64,000 bases of DNA from Sphyrna mokarran (Eukaryota): NCBI GenBank assembly GCA_024679065.1, contig JAGIQG010000023.1:38812001-38876000 (forward strand), written 5' to 3'. The translations under genes were made by a program, and so were the position numbers. Below the pieces are notes generated by a model that saw only the letters and a list, made by a program, of their open reading frames with translations, ran no database searches and was not told the DNA's origin. This document shows positions 12,341 to 59,487 of the stretch, piece after piece. The first letter of the stretch is position 1, and every line of letters begins with the position of its first letter.

Positions 12341-12487
12341 CTGTATAAAATGGAGAGTCTCTACGCTGTGTCTTCAGAGCAGCTTGCTCCTCCAGCTCCG
12401 AGTACTCTCTCTCACCCTCTTTCAACTACACGCTCTGCTTCAATCAGTGCTAAAAAACAGAAGAGAATTCCTCTTTATCAGAGATCA
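12341..12487 (+). CDS. CSDE1: CSDE1 alternative upstream exon: 9 nt UTR, ATG at 12350, 46-aa N-terminal extension
   Basis: Acceptor tactttcatactccAG|, ATG in strong context aaaATGG, donor TCA|gtaagt at 12488. Encodes MESLYAVSSEQLAPPAPSTLSHPLSTTRSASISAKKQKRIPLYQRS, similar to the remembered N-terminus of the long human isoform (MENVFTVSSD...KKQKRTPTYQRS). Phase 0 join to the ATG at 14381. Confidence 0.88.
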
Positions 12488-12525
12488 GTAAGTGAGGAAG
12501 AACTGATCAGTATTCCAGTAGTCAT

Positions 12526-21300: not shown

Positions 21301-23902
21301 GAGATTGCCAGAATGCATGTGAGAGTTGTATTGTGATCTCAAATGCCCTTTCCCTCCCTAGGCTCTTGTCCTGTATCCCAACTTTAGTCAACTTTTGCTC
21401 CTATACTAATAAATGGAGAGGAGAAAGTAAGGAATCAGGTTTACTTATTTGTGAACAGCTGCTTAGAGCCCCCACACATGATGATAGGGCAGTTTTTCTG
21501 GTTCTGTCTTATTGTGTGCAAACTTGGACATGTCATGTGGTCAATAAATATAAAGTACTTACTTGAAGTTAAAATTGAAATTCCAGGTTCAAGGAAACTG
21601 TTTTATCAGACTTGAGTACTCGGGCAGTACTAGCAACCATATTGGTTGCCCCATAATGTTGACTTGAGACCATTGTAACTGAACTGCACTTAATCTTAGG
21701 ATCAACCTCAAATTATTTTCAGTGGTAGAAAAGCTGCAGAGATATTTGGCATTATTAATACAAATGCCTCCACAGATTGTCCCTAACACCCAACACAACC
21801 CCCACATGCAAAACTGGCAAGGGAAAGGAATGTGATTTTTGGTCTGCTTAACATGATTGGGTGCTAAATATTCAGCTTTGATGCAAAGTTATTTGTCTTG
21901 TGAATGGGATAACACTGCAGTAATTTAATTTTTGGTGAATCGGAAGGGATAATATGCCTTCAGGATGTTTTGCAATGGGATTAGTTGACTAGCAATTTAA
22001 GAAGACAGCTCACTACCTTTCCGAGGGGAATTGGGGAAGGTCAGTAAAAGCTGACCTAGCCAATGGTGTCCCACCCCATGAGTCTTTAAAAACTAGTGTT
22101 GACTTGCTAAACATGCAAGTATAAGATATATTTGCACAAAGGGCCCTTCAAAATTTGGTCCTGTGCCCTAAAAATTGAAGTTTCTCATTTTAATGAATGA
22201 TAAATCCCTGCATGTTCTATTTCATCAGCTTATCCAGCTGAGGAGATTGTGTTCTAATTCATCTTTAGGTTGCTGAAGTATAGAAAAGGAGAATCAAGTT
22301 AATTCTACTTATTCTTGGATCTTGCTTCTTGTAAGACACTAGCTTTTTCAAAAGGGAGGAATTTTTTTGTATTTTTCCATCGCTTTCTTTTTGGGTATAG
22401 AAAATGACAAATTGACTAACTCTTGCCCACAGTTATAGATGAATCTCCAAGTATGGCAGCCACCACTAAGTAAATAGGAAAGATTTGTCCTTTGTGATAG
22501 AAGGATTAACAGGCTTGTCGTATGTGCCAGTCCCTTAAGGCCTTATTGCCTACAGTGTTTACTGTATGGAACAGTAAACAGAGGGTATGGAACAATCCCA
22601 TTGTGATGCGTAAGAATTATAATTCAAATTCTGCACTCTGAGTAGGTAATCTACTTGACTAAAATGATGGAGGCAGAATAGAGTAGCATTAGATCTGTTT
22701 ATTCTTTAGATATGGAACAACTTCATTCTTGTGGCATGAGTATCAGCCAACTGGGTGAGTGAACCATGCGTATTGGTACATTTTTTTCCTCAGATATGAG
22801 AGCAGCTGGGCTTGTGCTAACACTTAAATTCCTATGAAGTACGGTGTTTAAATTCCAGGTGACTTCACAACATTCTATCTTTTTTTCCAAAAGAGAAAAT
22901 CTTTGTGGAATAGTGTTGGACCACAAGATTGTTATTTGACCACTAATGAGGATGTTAGTTTGAAAGATTAGGCTGTAAAAATAGAACAAATTTCTACCTG
23001 TTTATTGAGATACACATGATTTGTGAAAGAATTGAAAATGTTCTAATTTTTATAACTTAAGTTGTACCTTGTGTATTCCTTGTCTCTTGCTGCTTTCCCA
23101 TCTCATGCCACCCACCCCTTCCCCTGCTTCAGTAACAGGACTCTTGAATTTAGTTTTTCATTTTTTTGATGTTCCTAGTTTCAACAAGCTCAAAGGTGTG
23201 ACCTGCTCTGTAATGATTATCCCCTTGAAATTAACAGATTTTTGAGGGGATTAGAAGGGGCTCTCCTACATACGGGGGTGAGGAAGGGATATTGCATAAT
23301 TCACATTAAATTCCTTTAAAAGGGACAAATGACTATCCCATCGTATCACTTATTTTTCCCATGGTATGTGGAGGATAACTTGTTTTCATGATTGAAGGAA
23401 AGAAACTATACCTTATGGTGAGTAAGTTATCTTGCTTTAATAGAAGAGTATCTGCAAATTTCTTACTACTGATTTGGTGTCTATAGCTAAACCGTTTCTT
23501 AGCAACCACTGACCTGTAAAAGAGTACTTTTTGCCAATAAATCAGCTGGAAATCAGGGGTTGAAAAATTTGTAGTGGTTTGGAAACAGGCATGCCAATAT
23601 ATTCAGGTTGTCAGGCCATTGCACATATGATATTTACTGTTTCAGTACCGAATTACTGCTGCTAGATACTGTTGTGTGAATGGGATAGCCAGTGGCAGAA
23701 ATCTGGTACTATAACAGAAGGTTGTAGTTCTTCAACCAATTCATAAGACATTGGAGGGATTATTTTATTTTATTTTTTTTTTTTTTGCTGATCTAAACCC
23801 AAAAATAGAGACCTAGGGCCTTGATCAGTGGCATTTTCAACTCCTGGAAAGCCTTCATATACCCTCCTGACATTATTCTTTGTTATGTCATGGTATGTCC
23901 AG

Positions 23903-24001
23903 GTTGTCTGTGCTGCTCCCCTTAACCTTGAGAACAAATCTGGGCTGAAACCTTCATCTCCTGGTCAGACTTCAGGCAGTGTGTGCTATGAACGCAATGG
24001 G
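23903..24001 (+). CDS. CSDE1: CSDE1 symmetric cassette-type exon
   Basis: gtatgtccAG|; VVCAAPLNLENKSGLKPSSPGQTSGSVCYERNG; GGG|gtaaga; 99 nt, phase 0/0. Corresponds to the alternatively spliced mammalian UNR exon (VVCAVPHNLESK...SVCYERNG). Confidence 0.95.
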
Positions 24002-45579: not shown

Positions 45580-46291
45580 CTGCTTTGACTATTGAATTTT
45601 GTTCTATATAATTGTTGATATTGCCTTTGGGATTGAGGGCTGCTAGAGTTTGGTTAGTTTCGGGTTATATACATTAATACCTAGTGACAGATTCTGTGCT
45701 AATCACCATTAAAAGTTTTGAATATTATGGTCTGTGGAAATAACGTGATTGTGAAATTACATTTTTAGATATTTGGTATCCAATTAACTAATCAGGAGTG
45801 AACTCCTAGCAGCTGTAGCTAGCCTGGGATAGAAGTTTGCAAAATTCCTTTCCAAACTTTATTGGATTACAAAGCACATACGTAGATTAGGGAAATATCA
45901 GCATCTTTTTCTACTTATTTGGAAATGAATAAAGCTATTAGCACAAGCAGGTGGACAATGAGTAGCAAGCAATGTATTCCAGTACATGTTTATGCATCCA
46001 GCATGTTGCGCTTCAACTTGCGTATACATAGTTATGCTTTGCGTGGGCGATGACTAGTAAACTAAAACTACAATACTTGCAGTAATAAAAGACAATACGT
46101 GGAGGGGAATCTGCATTTCTGTACCAGAGACCACCATTAGAATGGGTGCATTTGTTGGCTGCTTTGACTATTGGATATTGTTCTATATAAATGTTGGTAT
46201 TGACTTTGGGGATTGAGGGCTGTTATAGTTTGGCTAGTTTTGGGTTATCTACATTAATATCTAGTGACAGTTTCTGTGCTAACCACCCATT
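45580..46291 (+). repeat. ~130-bp dispersed direct repeat (45580-45710 and 46159-46291)
   Basis: Both copies read ctgctttgactattg...ttgttctatataa...gggattgagggctg...acattaata.ctagtgacag.ttctgtgctaa.cacc, with scattered substitutions. Confidence 0.9.
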
Positions 46292-46351
46292 TTGTACTTG
46301 CGGAGAAGCTATGAATTCAGAGTTGATTCTAATTTTATTTTTGTTTTGTAG

Positions 46352-46564
46352 ACTGACCCTTTGCCAGGGCGTATCAAAGTAAACTTTGCCATTTCCAAAG
46401 AACTTCCCTTTGGAGATAAGGACACCAGATCTAAGGTGACGCTATTAGAAGGTGACCATGTCAGGTTTAATATCTCCACTGATCGACGTGACAAATTGGA
46501 ACGTGCTACCAATATTGAAATTCTGACAGATTCTTTTGAGTTAACTGGAGAAACCAGAGAAATG
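46352..46564 (+). CDS. CSDE1: CSDE1 exon
   Basis: tttgttttgtAG|; TDPLPGRIKVNFAISKELPFGDKDTRSKVTLLEGDHVRFNISTDRRDKLERATNIEILTDSFELTGETREM; ATG|gtaagc; 213 nt. Confidence 0.98.
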
Positions 46565-46696
46565 GTAAGCTACTCTTATTTAACCTGTTTAATCACCTTT
46601 ATTTAATCTAAGTACCCTCAAACTAGATGTTATCTTGAGAGCTTTGAGTAATTTCAGAGAGGGAGGTAGGGTGATGACAGATGTGGAGTGGGAGCA

Positions 46697-46885
46697 AGAA
46701 TCAGAGTCCCTACAGTGCAGAAGGAGGACATTAGCCCATTGAGCCTGCACCACTGACAATCCCACCTAGACCCTATCCCCATAGCACCACTTATTTACCC
46801 TCCTAAACCCCCTGATACTATGGGGCAATTTAGCATGGCGAATCAACTGAACCTGCACTTGTTGAGTGACAGGAAACCCACGCAA
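46697..46885 (-). mobile_element. HE1-like V-SINE 3' half in a 435-nt intron
   Basis: agtccctacagtgcagaaggaggacattagccc...ggggcaatttagcatggcgaatcaactgaacctgcac. Confidence 0.8.
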
Positions 46886-46999
46886 ATGGTTCAGAATGTC
46901 TCAAATAATGTTTTCTTAATTAAAGATCACAAAGTATCTGCATATCTCTAGTTGGTTCTTTTTCCTTGAAAATTTACAGATTCTCTTTTGTCTCTGTAG

Positions 47000-47140
47000 G
47001 GCGTGATTGCAGCCATGAGAGATGGGTTTGGTTTCATTAAATGCGTAGATCGCGATGCTCGCATGTTCTTCCACTTTAGTGAGATCATGGATAGTCTCCA
47101 GCTCCACATCTCAGATGAAGTGGAATTCACAGTTGTCCCT
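47000..47140 (+). CDS. CSDE1: CSDE1 exon (canonical CSD core)
   Basis: tgtctctgtAG|; [47 protein letters not shown]; CCT|gtaagt; 141 nt. Confidence 0.98.
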
Positions 47141-48093
47141 GTAAGTGCTTCGTCTTGTATATTGGATACTTGTCTAAATATTGATTGTCAACTTCCCAAA
47201 TGACCTAAGCAAATATAGAAACCTGGATATCTGGTTCACTGCTCTCGCCTGGGGTTGTGTTAAATGCACCATGGTTGACCCATATTTACGAATTGAGACA
47301 TTTTACATGGTACTCCTTCAATGGATTGGCTTAACTACAATTGCTGTAGGCAAATTGCCATTATGTTCCGATCCCAGAAATTGCAATTGAAGTAGTTAAC
47401 AGTTGGTTTAATCTTGCGTTGGTTGGTAGAGCAATATTGTCTGTAATATATGTGGAATGGTGCTGTAGGATCTTTTGTATCCATTCAAACAACTGAAATG
47501 TAAGTTTGAGCTACTTGATTTCATGACAAGTTATGGACTGAGTTATTCACCAAATTATACACTAGTTCAATTCAACATTGATAAAATCTCACTGACCCAT
47601 ATTCAAGCATTAGTTACTTTAGTGTTTTTGTGTACATAAAGCCTTGTAGTGTTTTTGCCATTATTGTACAAATGACTTTAAAATGTGCTAAATTTTGATT
47701 GCTAGATGGATGGTGGGGGGCAAAGATCTTTAAGGATATGGAGTGCTGAAAAAGAATGAATTCTTCCATAACAATTTTAATGTAGATATTGCTCGTTTCC
47801 ACATCGGTTTCAACTAGAACAGTCAAATATTGTGACACAATTCTTGTGTGTATGTCTGCTCCTGAATGAATAAAACTTCCAGTGTTATTGCTTAGTCATG
47901 TGTCAAGTAGAAACTGAGGATGAATGTTAATTTCCATTTTTAACCTTAGCAAGATGATTGGTCCTCATTGTTTTCTTAATTTGAATTTTTTTGTAGCATT
48001 CTCCATATGAATGACTTTTGACTCCATATGACTTTTGAGTAGTATTGGGTATTAGCTTTATCCATTAAAATGTTTTTTCTCCTTTTTTTAAAG

Positions 48094-48258
48094 GATGTAC
48101 TTTCAGCCCAGAGGAACCATGCAATTCGTATTAAAAAACTTCCAAAAGGAACAGTGTCTTTTCATACGCAATCTGAACAGCGTTACTTTGGGATGGTGGA
48201 GAAAGAGGCTACTGGTTCAATATCTAAATCCACAAGCCCAGCCAAGGGTAAAGAAAAG
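48094..48258 (+). CDS. CSDE1: CSDE1 exon
   Basis: ttttttaaAG|; DVLSAQRNHAIRIKKLPKGTVSFHTQSEQRYFGMVEKEATGSISKSTSPAKGKEK; AAG|gtattc; 165 nt. Confidence 0.97.
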
Positions 48259-49691
48259 GTATTCAGAATTGGAGTAATGTAAACTGCAGATGGTTTAAAA
48301 GTATGTGTGCACAAAATCTAATGTAGACTCTTCCCAAATCATGTTTAGTTTTGCCTAATTGCAGTACAGTATTTGATTTTGGAGAAAATTGGGAACTTAT
48401 CTGAACTGATTGAAACTTCCTGCTTTAGAAATTGCTTCAGGTTGATACCCTGAAGCAATATCAGGGTAGTTTCTAGTTATCCTGAATAAAGAATGGAACA
48501 CAAGGTCAAGAGGCAACCTAATTGAGATTTTGAAGAGAATGAGTGCTGTTGACGAGTAGATAATAGCTGTTCTCTAGCAAGTGGGTCAGTAATTAGATGT
48601 CACAGACATTAGCAAAAGATCTAGAGGAGAGATGAGGTGAAATAGTTAGTTGCCAGCATCTAGAATGCTATGCCATAATTAATCTTGAAAGTTAGACAGT
48701 ACTTGAGGATGAGGAGCTTGTAGGGTAACAGACGGAAAAAAACCCAGCGTCATATGGGACCAGGTACAATGGACTGAATGTCTTGATTTGTGCTGAGTTT
48801 CCATGATTCCACAAGAGACTCGTTTAATGGGCTGTCTTAAACAGCTGACCCCTCTCGGAGGGATTTGCATGCCATGATACTGATATATGTACTAGAATCA
48901 CAGTTCTTTCACATCACTATTCTTGTTTTCATTCCTGTGCAGCAGTGAGGTGTTAGAAATAATTAGCAGTTCAGTTGCCAAGTGGGTAATATGGCAGTTG
49001 CCTGCTACCTGGATATTGCTCATAAGCCAACTATTCTAGTTTGCTTTACAAATAGGGCATAATACAGTGGCTGTTACTAGGCTTGTAATCCAGAACTCTA
49101 AATGGTAGTTCAGATCCTACCACAGCCAATTGGGATAAGTAAATCTGGAATGAAGGGCTGTGTTGACTAAAAATGCATCTGACTGATGTTCTTTCAGGAA
49201 AGAACCTTGCTGTCTTCAATCTGGTCTGACCAAAGACTACATTATTTACTGTGATGAGCTGACAGGATTCATTTTTGAGTGCTGGTAAAAATGTTGATAG
49301 TCAGCATTGCAAATCTTTGTTCAGACATAACTAAAATGTATTGCTAAAGATTAAAGTTGGGGATGGAGAAGGAAATGACAGATGTTAAGGAGTTCATGGA
49401 GTGATATATCTTAGTAATTCAAATGGCTTGTTGAGGTTTGAGTGAGTGTTTGTCATTTTCCCCTTCCAAATCCTTATGTGCCGTTTTATCAAATGACATT
49501 TTCTTGCCCTTTGTTTTGGGGTTGGGCTGGGGGTGGAGAAAGAGTCATGGAAGTGAGTGTCTTTTGGATGCAAAGATTGAATAGGATGTTAAGCTTGTGG
49601 AAAAACTTTTGGTCTTCATCTCAGTTAAGTTTGTGGCTTAATTAAATTCAGAAATGTATCACTAAGATATTGGATGAATAACTTTGGGTTA

Positions 49692-50406
49692 AAGAACAAA
49701 GAACAAAACAACATGGGAAACAGGCCCTTCGGCCTAACAAGCCCGTGCTGCCACCCCGATGTTCCCACCTCTACCCGTGATCCCTGTCTATGTCTATAGA
49801 TCTATGGATTAAAAACCAAATTTGAGACAATTTAGGGAGAATTTGTTTTGCCAGTTAGCCTAAGAGCACATCTTTGGGATGTGGGAGGAAACTTGAGCAC
49901 CTGGAGAAAACCCACACAAGCACAGGGAGAATGCGCAAACTCCCACAGCCACAAGCCCAAATCCATGTATCTGCACAGCACAGCAATAGTCACTGAGCTG
50001 TCGTGTTGTCCATCAAATGGTCCAGGTCAAGCGTACACTAATGACGTGAAGCGTTAGGATACTCTCAAAAAAAAAATCCAAGAGCAGCGCTCTCACGACC
50101 CATCTCGTGTATGCCCCTTGTTAGACAACAAGGTGGACCAAAGCACCTGTAGGTAAAAACAAGTACATCAATATCATCTATTTACACACTTCCCAGGGAC
50201 TCCCAAGGCTCATGATCCCTATTTTAAATCTGTTTTCTCTACCCCTCCATTCCCATTCTGTTCATGTGCCCATCTAAGTGTTTCTTAAATAACTCGAGTA
50301 CCTGCTTCCACCACTTGGTAGTGCATTCCATACCCCACCACCCTCTGTGTGAAAAAACTCCCTCTAGCATCCAAATTATACCTTACCCCCCTCACCCTAA
50401 GCCTGT
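49692..50406 (-). mobile_element. Chimeric CR1/V-SINE LINE family, copy 2 (~715 bp: ORF2 end plus 3' UTR)
   Basis: Colinear and highly similar to 62950-63655. The + strand shows an (aaagaac)n tail at the left end. Confidence 0.92.
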
Positions 50407-50815: not shown

Positions 50816-50989
50816 TTTGGTCAGTGTTGTCATAGTCATTGGTTAACGTCTTGGAGAAATAATGAATTGGATCTCTTCATTCTGCTTACCAGCTGCAGTC
50901 TTGCTCTGTCATCTTTTCCATCTAGTTTTTGTACTTGGATCCTATTAAGATCTCCCTTTTTTTCTCTTGTGTTATCTTTGCTTTTTCAG

Positions 50990-51001
50990 AAAAAAGAAAA
51001 G
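50990..51001 (+). CDS. CSDE1: Candidate 12-nt CSDE1 microexon (KKEK)
   Basis: tctccctttttttctcttgtgttatctttgctttttcAG|AAAAAAGAAAAG|gtatga. Phase 0/0 like both flanking exons; TGC at 50979-50981; TGCATG at 51044. Confidence 0.7.
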
Positions 51002-54000
51002 GTATGAAAATTCTTTCAAATCCTGTTTGCTGCAGCAGTGAGATGCATGTTGTTGTATGTTTTGGTTGTGAAGCTTTAGCTGTTTGTACAAGTGGAAGAG
51101 GGATTTTGGCTTGGATTGATCAGAGTAGTGATTGATTTTACTATCTAATTGAATTTTGTGAAAATCATAAATGAGTATTGAATTGGGCATTTTGAAATTT
51201 TAGATTTTGAAGTAATGAATTGTAAGGCTGTGCTGTGAACTAATTATTGGCCCACAATTTCTTGGTTTATAACCAAGTGCATGATGTGATGTTTGTTTCT
51301 GTCTAACTAAATGAACTTCATAGGAACATATTTTTAACTAATTTCCATATGGTATAAATGTCTTGTGTAGTGTAAACTGGGGCAAGTGGATTATTGCCAA
51401 ACGTGTTTAATGACATTCTTTGCAAATGCATTAAATTGAGTTCAGAGAAGCTATTTTCCTTGAATAAAATTGAAGTTAATGTGGTCAAATTCTATTTTCG
51501 TTGGTTTTACAGTAGAATTGCTCACCATTGTTCTTTCAAATGTAGTTGGATAATACAGGGCCCAAGATGTTATCCTACCTGGTGCTTGAGCTGAGCAAAT
51601 ATTAGAATTTTGTGCTAAGTACTAGCTTCCATGTCTGAGACAGGATGTCAACCAGATACTGTTGTGAAGTCATTTGTGGACAATCCTGTATTTTGGCAGT
51701 TTGAGACTCTTGTCTTTTGAGCAAAGTATGGCGGTCTGAATTATCATTCCAACACGCACTCTAACCACCTTGTTGAATCAACTTATTCAATTCTTTCTTG
51801 TTTCTAATAGGCAAAGCAAATGAGTGAATCATGAATCTTAAAATTTACCCTTGACGACAGGGTTAGCTATTCTTTGCAGTATAACACTATTTTTGAAATG
51901 ACATTTTGTATAAATGGTAGCTGGAATTGGTCAAAGTTTGAGCTCTAAGTGATTAATCCAGTTGAATACACGTTTTCCTGTTTTGGGGATCGTAAAGATA
52001 GCAAAACGGCCTTGTATTTAACAAGTCCTCTTTTTAAGAGGCAAAGTAAATGTAGATTTCAGAGGCAAGATGTTTAAAATTTAGGAACTTTATTATATAA
52101 TTCCACATGTTGTTGAATTATTCAAATGTGCAGCTTGTCATGCAATTTAACCTTGGAAGTGTAGATGTTTTTCTGCTATACCGACGTCTTGTGCTTATAG
52201 ACAGTGGCTCTTGGGAAAATCATCATCTTTTGTGGGGTTTCTAATGGCATGTTTGCATAGCCTGTAATCAGATATGGCAGAAGTGATGTGTTTTCATTGT
52301 TAACGTAACCTGTGTGAATTTCACTTTATCCACCTTTCAGTTATTTATTGAGAGTAGTATCGTTGGCCTATACGTGCTTTTACAAGTTGGCTGTGGAAAT
52401 TGAGTATTAGTATTGTCAGATGATTAAAATTTTAATTCCAGGATCTACCTTGTGTAAGTACTGAATGTTTTGTGAATTGAGTGCATTTTATGATTCGAGG
52501 AAAGACTTGTAAAAGTGCATGATAGCAGAAATGGGATAGTTGCATTTCATTCCAGACTGATATGTTGTGCTTCTCTGCATTTTGAATGATAGTTAACCAA
52601 TATTAGAAAACTAGTTGTTGAGAATTGCTGTACCATCAAGATTTTAATGTGCCCTAATTTATTTTGTTCTAAAAATGCATGTGACAGTGAATTATATGTG
52701 ACTTATTAGAGGCATGTGCACGTACACTTGTGATGTTGAGTTTATCAAAAATGGATCTACAAGCCCTCCACTCCAGACTTGAAGATTGATAGTTAAACAT
52801 GGCACAAAGCTAGGCACTTTTTCCAGAGATTGCAAGTACCTGAGTTATTTCATAATGGCTGAGAAATGTCCAGATGAACTGTGAAGAAGCTCATGGGACG
52901 GATGCTGCTGTAGAAGGAAAGAACTTTTATTCGTGTTTGTTTTGTAAATAAATGAGTTAGTGTTGGCTTCATGTCACAAAAGAACAATCACATATATTTG
53001 CTTCTTGCCACAGAAACATTGTTAATCCCTCAAATGAAACTCTGGAAGTGTAGGTGTATGTATACCAGGACACTGACCTTGGCAAGAAAACTGTGGCTGA
53101 ATTTATATTCTGTAGTCAGAGATCCTGAGTATAATTACATTTCTGTAACTAAGTCCTTAGACTAGCTGATTTAGTATTGACCAGGAGTTGAACAGAAGCT
53201 TATTTGTTGAATGCTTCAAATGTTAAAGCAAAAAGATCCTGTGTGCATAGCTCTCGTTTGGTTCCATCTTTGGATTCCTCTGAGAATGATCTGTTCATTC
53301 CAGTGCTTAGCCAGGAGTGCATCCAGATCTCTCGAGAAATGTTCAGTTTTTGTACAGCTGGACTTTGGTTAATATATCTATATGGAATCTGATAAGGCCA
53401 CAGTCTCCCCCAGAGAGCTTTGAAAAGAGCATGAGTTTAAAAGGAACTTAGAAAAAAGATGAATAACTTTGGATATTTCCAAATGGCATTTAACGTTCAA
53501 GGCAAGGAATGAGAAAAGCTACAGTGATGGAACAAAAGCTATGTTTGGAATGAATGAACAAACTAAGCAAGCTGAAATTTAAGGGATGCCTGAGAAGTAA
53601 ACATTGCTAGAAAACAGTAGACCAAAGTTATAAACTTAAAACTGAAAAAGTAAATTAAAAGGCAAAACAATAGAAATGGGATTAAGAGAGTTTATGCAAG
53701 ATCAAGGCTATAGCCATTTATGTTTTGGAATGTTTTTGAATAAAGCAATATAATGGCAGCCCTGCGAGACATGAGAACAGTTTGCTAATCATTGTGTTTT
53801 GCCTTGAGAGAAAAAAAATGCTGTAATTGCAAGAGTAGACAAATGAGGGATGAGTATTGGACATGATAAAGAATCACCACAACTCGCTGAAATGGCTAGA
53901 CTAATAAGAAAAAAAAAATAGGAAAACAAATAAGCCATGTGGCCCGTTGAATCTGCTCCACCTTGAGTAAGACCGTGACTGATGCTGTAATTCCAGTTAA

Positions 54001-59379: not shown

Positions 59380-59487
59380 GATGCAGAAGAGGGAATCATT
59401 GCATATGAGGAAGCTGGGATAAGAATGACTGTACCATATCATATAAAAGATCTGGAAGGGTGTGCAATTCCACAGCATGGTGATAAG
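59380..59487 (+). CDS. CSDE1: CSDE1 exon (last one recognised in the window)
   Basis: attgctctttAG|; DAEEGIIAYEEAGIRMTVPYHIKDLEGCAIPQHGDK, homologous to human EAEDGIIAYDDCGVKLTI...QIGDK; AAG|gtaaac; 108 nt. Confidence 0.95.

Follow-up and report, generated by a model that had tools for sequence, protein, structure and literature searches.

Exon structure of csde1 and the 12-nt segment

The csde1 gene of Sphyrna mokarran contains, within a long intron, a 12-nt segment bounded by an AG and a GT, and the question arises whether this segment is an exon, what it would add to the protein, and where it would be included. The window, that is the whole stretch of 64,000 nucleotides analyzed, contains the 5' portion of csde1, which lies on the + strand, and the genome has a single copy of this locus. 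Exons at 12350, 14381, 18273, 23900, 36461, about 40070, 42837, 44684, 46352, 47000, 48094, and 59380 match CSDE1 of Mustelus asterias at 97-100%, and the few mismatches lie at exon edges. An alternative coding exon at 12350-12493 gives an N-terminal extension absent from the Mustelus sequence P0126, and a further alternative coding exon at 23900-24001 is absent from the Mustelus isoform P0148.

The segment (50990..51001, + strand) reads AAA AAA GAA AAG, encoding KKEK in phase 0, and is located between the acceptor ...tttttcAG and the donor gtatga, 2.7 kb away from the upstream and 8.4 kb away from the downstream coding exon. The upstream exon (48094..48258, +), assigned by its match to Mustelus and by splice joints in contigs, covers the end of CSD5 as well as the first strand and loop of the non-canonical domain ncCSD6 and ends with ...SPAKGKEK. 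The downstream exon (59380..59487, +), likewise matched to Mustelus, starts with DAEEG and follows 48258 directly in contigs of the runs X1, X2, and X3. Both junctions, at 48258 and at 59380, are in phase 0, so that a 12-nt exon preserves the reading frame. The flanking exons of M. asterias P0126 correspond to 48094-48258 and to the sequence starting at 59380, and KKEK takes up exactly its residues 455-458. The original prediction had proposed a cassette microexon at this place; its coordinates for exon, donor, TGC, and TGCATG all proved correct when checked in the sequence.

The splice sites are strong as compared to those of neighboring exons. The pyrimidine tract with its acceptor AG (50951..50989, +) has a pyrimidine fraction of 0.86 over positions -40 to -4, as compared to 0.59-0.76 for seven csde1 coding-exon acceptors; it contains UCUU/CUCU at -26, -25, and -15, and no second AG was found upstream as far as -42. 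The donor AAG/gtatga (51002..51007, +) scored 8.5 bits and that of the upstream exon 4.9 bits with a rough matrix. A search of both strands of the window for AG..GT pieces of 3-30 nt with a pyrimidine fraction of ≥0.84 and a donor of ≥8.5 bits returned 50990-51001 as the sole candidate. An equally good candidate occurred in 2 of 300 Markov-simulated introns, with thresholds set to the values of the candidate itself and with an approximate donor matrix. Furthermore, no other well-supported AG..GT piece in the intron ends in (D/E)K, and none but this one can code for KKEK. The segment has the size (3-30 nt), the AG/GT borders, and the functional-looking sites of a cassette microexon; it stands above chance and is almost certainly a real exon.

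A run of 13 identical bases is shared by 48250-48262, the end of the upstream exon with its donor, and 50993-51005, the end of the microexon with its donor; it comprises the last nine exonic and the first four intronic bases. An old, short duplication involving the exon end could account for it, as could convergence towards codons for K-E-K. Because these bases are common to both exon end/donor sites, junction reads with short overhangs are ambiguous.

Contigs of three runs without tissue labels were aligned to 46200-49800, and the junction was read from overhanging contig ends. The skip form, with 48258 joined straight to the downstream exon, was present in all three runs (X1, X2, and X3), and the skipped transcript is therefore established. 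An X1 contig was identical to the window in the three exons that it covers. Among the matches listed for X1-X3 there was no contig including KKEK, and contigs drop rare forms. From the isoforms of related species we infer that the microexon is also included in S. mokarran; the 12 bases would then be an optional csde1 exon, skipped in the transcripts seen here. Runs X2 and X3, both labelled metagenome, include spliced contigs of csde1 that closely resemble the window exons, and X3 contains an additional, distant csde1 contig with 23 differences in 160 bases; the csde1 contigs of these two runs are transcripts of related fishes. An intronic fragment of a high-copy repeat is located at 46700-46860, where many X1 contigs pile up.

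Inserts at the same junction in other vertebrates

Homologue searches and cluster look-ups yielded 530 proteins among the matches listed, 519 of which contain the junction. An insert starting with KK at this junction was found in 63 of these 519 RefSeq/UniRef CSDE1 entries, belonging to 25 species: by source names four sharks, Callorhinchus, twelve ray-finned fish, the coelacanth, five frogs, and two caecilians. Skip isoforms accompany the insert isoforms in most of the 25 species. Together with the phase 0 of both flanks and the skip form in all three runs, these entries bear out the proposed in-frame cassette, and the surmise that similar isoforms of the KK[ED]K type are annotated in other fishes was right. 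Examples are Scyliorhinus canicula XP_038675875.1, M. asterias XP_078053816.1, and Callorhinchus milii V9KAG1. The expectation that gene finders would easily miss the exon did not hold, as RefSeq models of four sharks carry the insert. The insert-bearing entries are mostly predicted gene models, which presumably rest on RNA-seq support.

The peptide varies among species (KKET, KKDK, KKER, KKVK, KKGK, and KKK are included), whereas its length and the KK..K pattern are retained on both sides of the deepest jawed-vertebrate split. In sharks, KKET occurs in Heptranchias and KKEK in Mustelus, Scyliorhinus canicula, and Rhincodon; in ray-finned fish, KKEK occurs in gar, bichirs, tarpon, and eel, and KKDK in paddlefish and percomorphs; KKVK and KKGK are further variants of frogs and caecilians. 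In the database isoforms with KKEK or KKDK, both the four residues and the junction are the same, and at the protein level the flanking exons of Mustelus match the window; there is no substantive difference from the exon described here. Entries of Xenopus laevis assigned to the L homeolog have KKK (P0492, P0496, and P0497) and others KKEK (P0494, P0495, P0498, and P0501); hence, the two gene copies have exons of different length.

Among the matches listed, the insert occurred in 11 of 36 shark entries and 4 of 11 chimaera entries, and in none of those from rays and skates (0/27), salamanders (0/19), or amniotes (0/153, human and mouse included; 8 of the 161 amniote-cluster entries do not contain the junction and were left out). 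The human entries fetched are without the insert, in agreement with the original prediction. Judged from annotation, the microexon would have arisen in the common ancestor of jawed vertebrates, because it is present in chimaera, sharks, ray-finned fish, coelacanth, and amphibians. On the same basis it was apparently lost in amniotes (reptiles, birds, and mammals), because it is absent in well-sequenced members of this group.

The same loop carries other inserts. A second exon of 15-18 nt (NKPDK, SKVDK, GKVEK, and GKVVEK) is found in coelacanth and ray-finned fish (P0200, P0159, P0436, P0445, P0057, and P0058); it follows the KK-type exon and is included alone or together with it. Two skate species have a 31-residue insert at the junction (P0135-P0140, P0143, P0145, and P0146) and no KKEK form among their entries listed; this insert accounts for 8 of the 27 entries from rays and skates. 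Rhincodon has the insert VIEHADL in this loop. No credible copy of the second microexon, of the skate 31-aa exon, or of VIEHADL was found in the intron of S. mokarran. By comparison of these entries, the ncCSD6 loop appears to have gained exons repeatedly.

One could go further and regard the loop as an ancient splicing hot-spot, with a Lys-rich microexon of the ancestral jawed vertebrate, a second one in bony fish, and the 31-residue exon of skates, all lost in amniotes; the first would then belong to the few deeply conserved microexons controlled by an RBFOX program of muscle instead of by SRRM3/4, and would switch the protein partners of UNR. We regard this larger picture as doubtful. Most noteworthy are two points, the apparent disappearance of an old microexon in amniotes and the repeated gain of exons within a single loop. 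For work on csde1 of zebrafish and Xenopus it is relevant that isoforms lacking in mammals may exist.

By title and opening of the abstract, no paper on a csde1 microexon was found in a literature that mostly excludes subscription journals. The isoform is already present in RefSeq and UniRef, mostly as predictions without tissue data or description, yet it is undescribed in the literature searched; it is an ordinary kind of conserved microexon. Deletions of single microexons in zebrafish had mostly little effect according to part of PMC12626420, and since, moreover, the isoform is already in databases, its importance is modest.

Location of KKEK in the protein

P0126 was aligned to CSD456 of Drosophila Unr (PDB 6Y6E), and the insert fell into a region with gaps that follows the first strand of domain three. 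An AlphaFold model, built on a 56-sequence alignment with a mean pLDDT of 68.6 and a pTM of 0.34, gave a pLDDT <50 for residues 441-460, which lie between strands 430-436 and 463-469. According to these predictions, KKEK is added to the β1-β2 loop of the non-canonical CSD6, a predicted flexible region. The assertion that it lengthens a lysine-rich loop was right.

The third domain of CSD456 is ncCSD6; non-canonical CSDs are without RNA-binding motifs, and isolated ncCSD6 gives no RNA-induced shifts (PMC7383231, in part). The β1-β2 loop of the Drosophila domain, to which the shark insert aligns, is extended and flexible with weak density, and was considered a possible protein-interaction platform; in the part of PMC7383231 available, it is described without mention of a splice variant. 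Because the insert is located in this flexible extended loop, it is not expected to disturb the fold, which should remain intact in the modeled protein. Speculatively, both fold and canonical RNA-binding surfaces would be unchanged, and three more lysines in the proposed platform loop might modulate the binding of partners or the local charge. CSDE1/UNR is a much-studied translation regulator whose ncCSD6 loop is fixed in the amniote entries seen. Fish and amphibians vary this loop by splicing and may thus offer natural variants for the interaction-platform proposal (PMC7383231, in part).

Motifs and probable control of inclusion

Downstream of the microexon, the RBFOX motif UGCAUG matches at +43 (51044..51049, +), in enhancer position, and again at +277 (51278..51283, +). 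In the window, 2.5% of positions have a UGCAUG within 50 nt downstream, and 0.8% of 300-nt stretches contain two. ACUAAU motifs of the QKI type, weak and found post hoc, match at +238 (51239..51244, +) and +336 (51337..51342, +); two ACTAAY occur in 2.7% of 400-nt stretches. Upstream, UGC at -11 (50979..50981, +) is a weak candidate for an SRRM3/4 element: 91 of 238 pyrimidine-rich YAG sites in the window (38%) have TGC within -20 to -3, and the acceptor of the downstream exon (59380) likewise. TGC alone is no more than chance, and the two UGCAUG are the firmest regulatory motif. Inclusion is likely tissue-regulated, in muscle or in nerve.

We tentatively favor, at somewhat below even confidence, an RBFOX-driven inclusion in muscle or heart and perhaps, to some extent, in brain. 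PTBP-type proteins would repress the exon via the CU-rich tract, and RBFOX, perhaps helped by QKI, would activate it from the downstream intron, so that RBFOX-type proteins would switch on inclusion in these tissues. The assignment to muscle is based on motifs together with absence from neural lists. Muscle exons with downstream UGCAUG and upstream UCUU/CUCUCU were reported in PMC1950531 (in part); RBFOX/QKI/PTB muscle-enriched exons described there have UGCAUG <200 nt downstream and UCUU/CUCU in the upstream 100 nt, as has the csde1 exon, and the two downstream UGCAUG with upstream UCUU/CUCU follow this pattern. In the same partial source, however, identical motifs flank brain exons, and the enriched QKI motif is ACUAAC within 200 nt, common though not obligatory; ACUAAC is missing from this range in the csde1 intron, where ACUAAU, at +238 and +336, lies farther downstream and gives a weak, post-hoc hint of muscle. 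The acceptor layout also fits SRRM3/4 targets. The downstream UGCAUG had been taken as a neural sign: the motif is indeed present at 51044, but it marks muscle exons as much (PMC1950531, in part).

Regulation as a classical neural microexon, by SRRM3/SRRM4 via the UGC at -11 and helped by neuronal RBFOX, is a possibility to which we give clearly less than even weight; this and the muscle/heart reading are close. An exon of 12 nt, in frame and kept from sharks to frogs, agrees with it, and the genome contains two SRRM_C-domain loci. SRRM3/4 neural microexons share with the csde1 exon a length of 3-27 nt, frame preservation, and conservation in jawed vertebrates, as well as a UGC near the acceptor, a good donor, and a surface loop (PMC12626424 and bioRxiv 10.1101/2024.09.17.613571, each in part). 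The AG-free zone of about 40 nt with CU-rich tract, UGC, and good donor corresponds to the layout given in the available part of bioRxiv 10.1101/2024.09.17.613571, where 74-79% of SRRM3/4 targets have UGC; the 38% background of this motif in the window weakens the argument. Most conserved regulated microexons are neural (PMC12626424, in part), and tissue-specific exons have been compared across species (bioRxiv 10.64898/2026.09.05.749416, in part).

Unlike such exons, the csde1 exon is absent from 153 of 153 amniote entries and from a zebrafish neural list. The part of PMC12626424 consulted lists 708 zebrafish neural exons with no csde1 microexon among them, although the repeated exon end may hinder mapping; the sole csde1 entry is an exon of 289 nt (row 660 of supplementary file 1; DreEX0024480, dPSI 43.9), neural-enriched with little change on eMIC loss and without human orthologue. 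Coverage of csde1 in this table is adequate, since that exon is listed, and the list counts against neural inclusion insofar as zebrafish possesses the microexon. No match to csde1 was found in the parts available of the srrm3-paper supplements PMC9303857 (18 files) and PMC13281805 (2 files), in 12 of 13 files of PMC12626420, or in the mouse supplements of PMC7821500 (8 files), where other gene ids are possible. SRRM3/4-dependent neural regulation, as first proposed, is so far unsupported. Furthermore, all 15 killifish UniProt entries of the A0A1A7/A0A1A8 series are without insert, which also speaks against a neural exon if, as assumed, they derive from brain transcriptomes. The available part of PMC5418189 contained no confirmation of this origin.

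A real exon with low or partial inclusion in many tissues and no pronounced switch, which would be tolerated as insertions can be accommodated in the loop, is unlikely. Different lineages did acquire inserts of unrelated sequence in the loop (31 aa in skates and, in bony fish, a second exon of 5-6 aa), the peptide drifts from KKET to KKK, and the insert was not found in amniotes, salamanders, and rays and skates among the matches listed; but the retention of length and KK..K pattern across the deepest jawed-vertebrate split argues against it, as does the rarity of two RBFOX sites within 300 nt. Finally, a chance AG..GT with database isoforms produced as alignment artefacts from the repeated AAAGAAAAG at the upstream exon end is highly improbable: the 13 shared bases and the lack of an inclusion contig among the matches listed for X1-X3 would suit it, but in many species inserts such as KKET, KKDK, and KKVK are unlike the end of the upstream exon, which is not what mis-mapping would yield. 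Furthermore, exactly these codons are bounded by a strong acceptor and donor, and the insert was annotated independently in 25 species.
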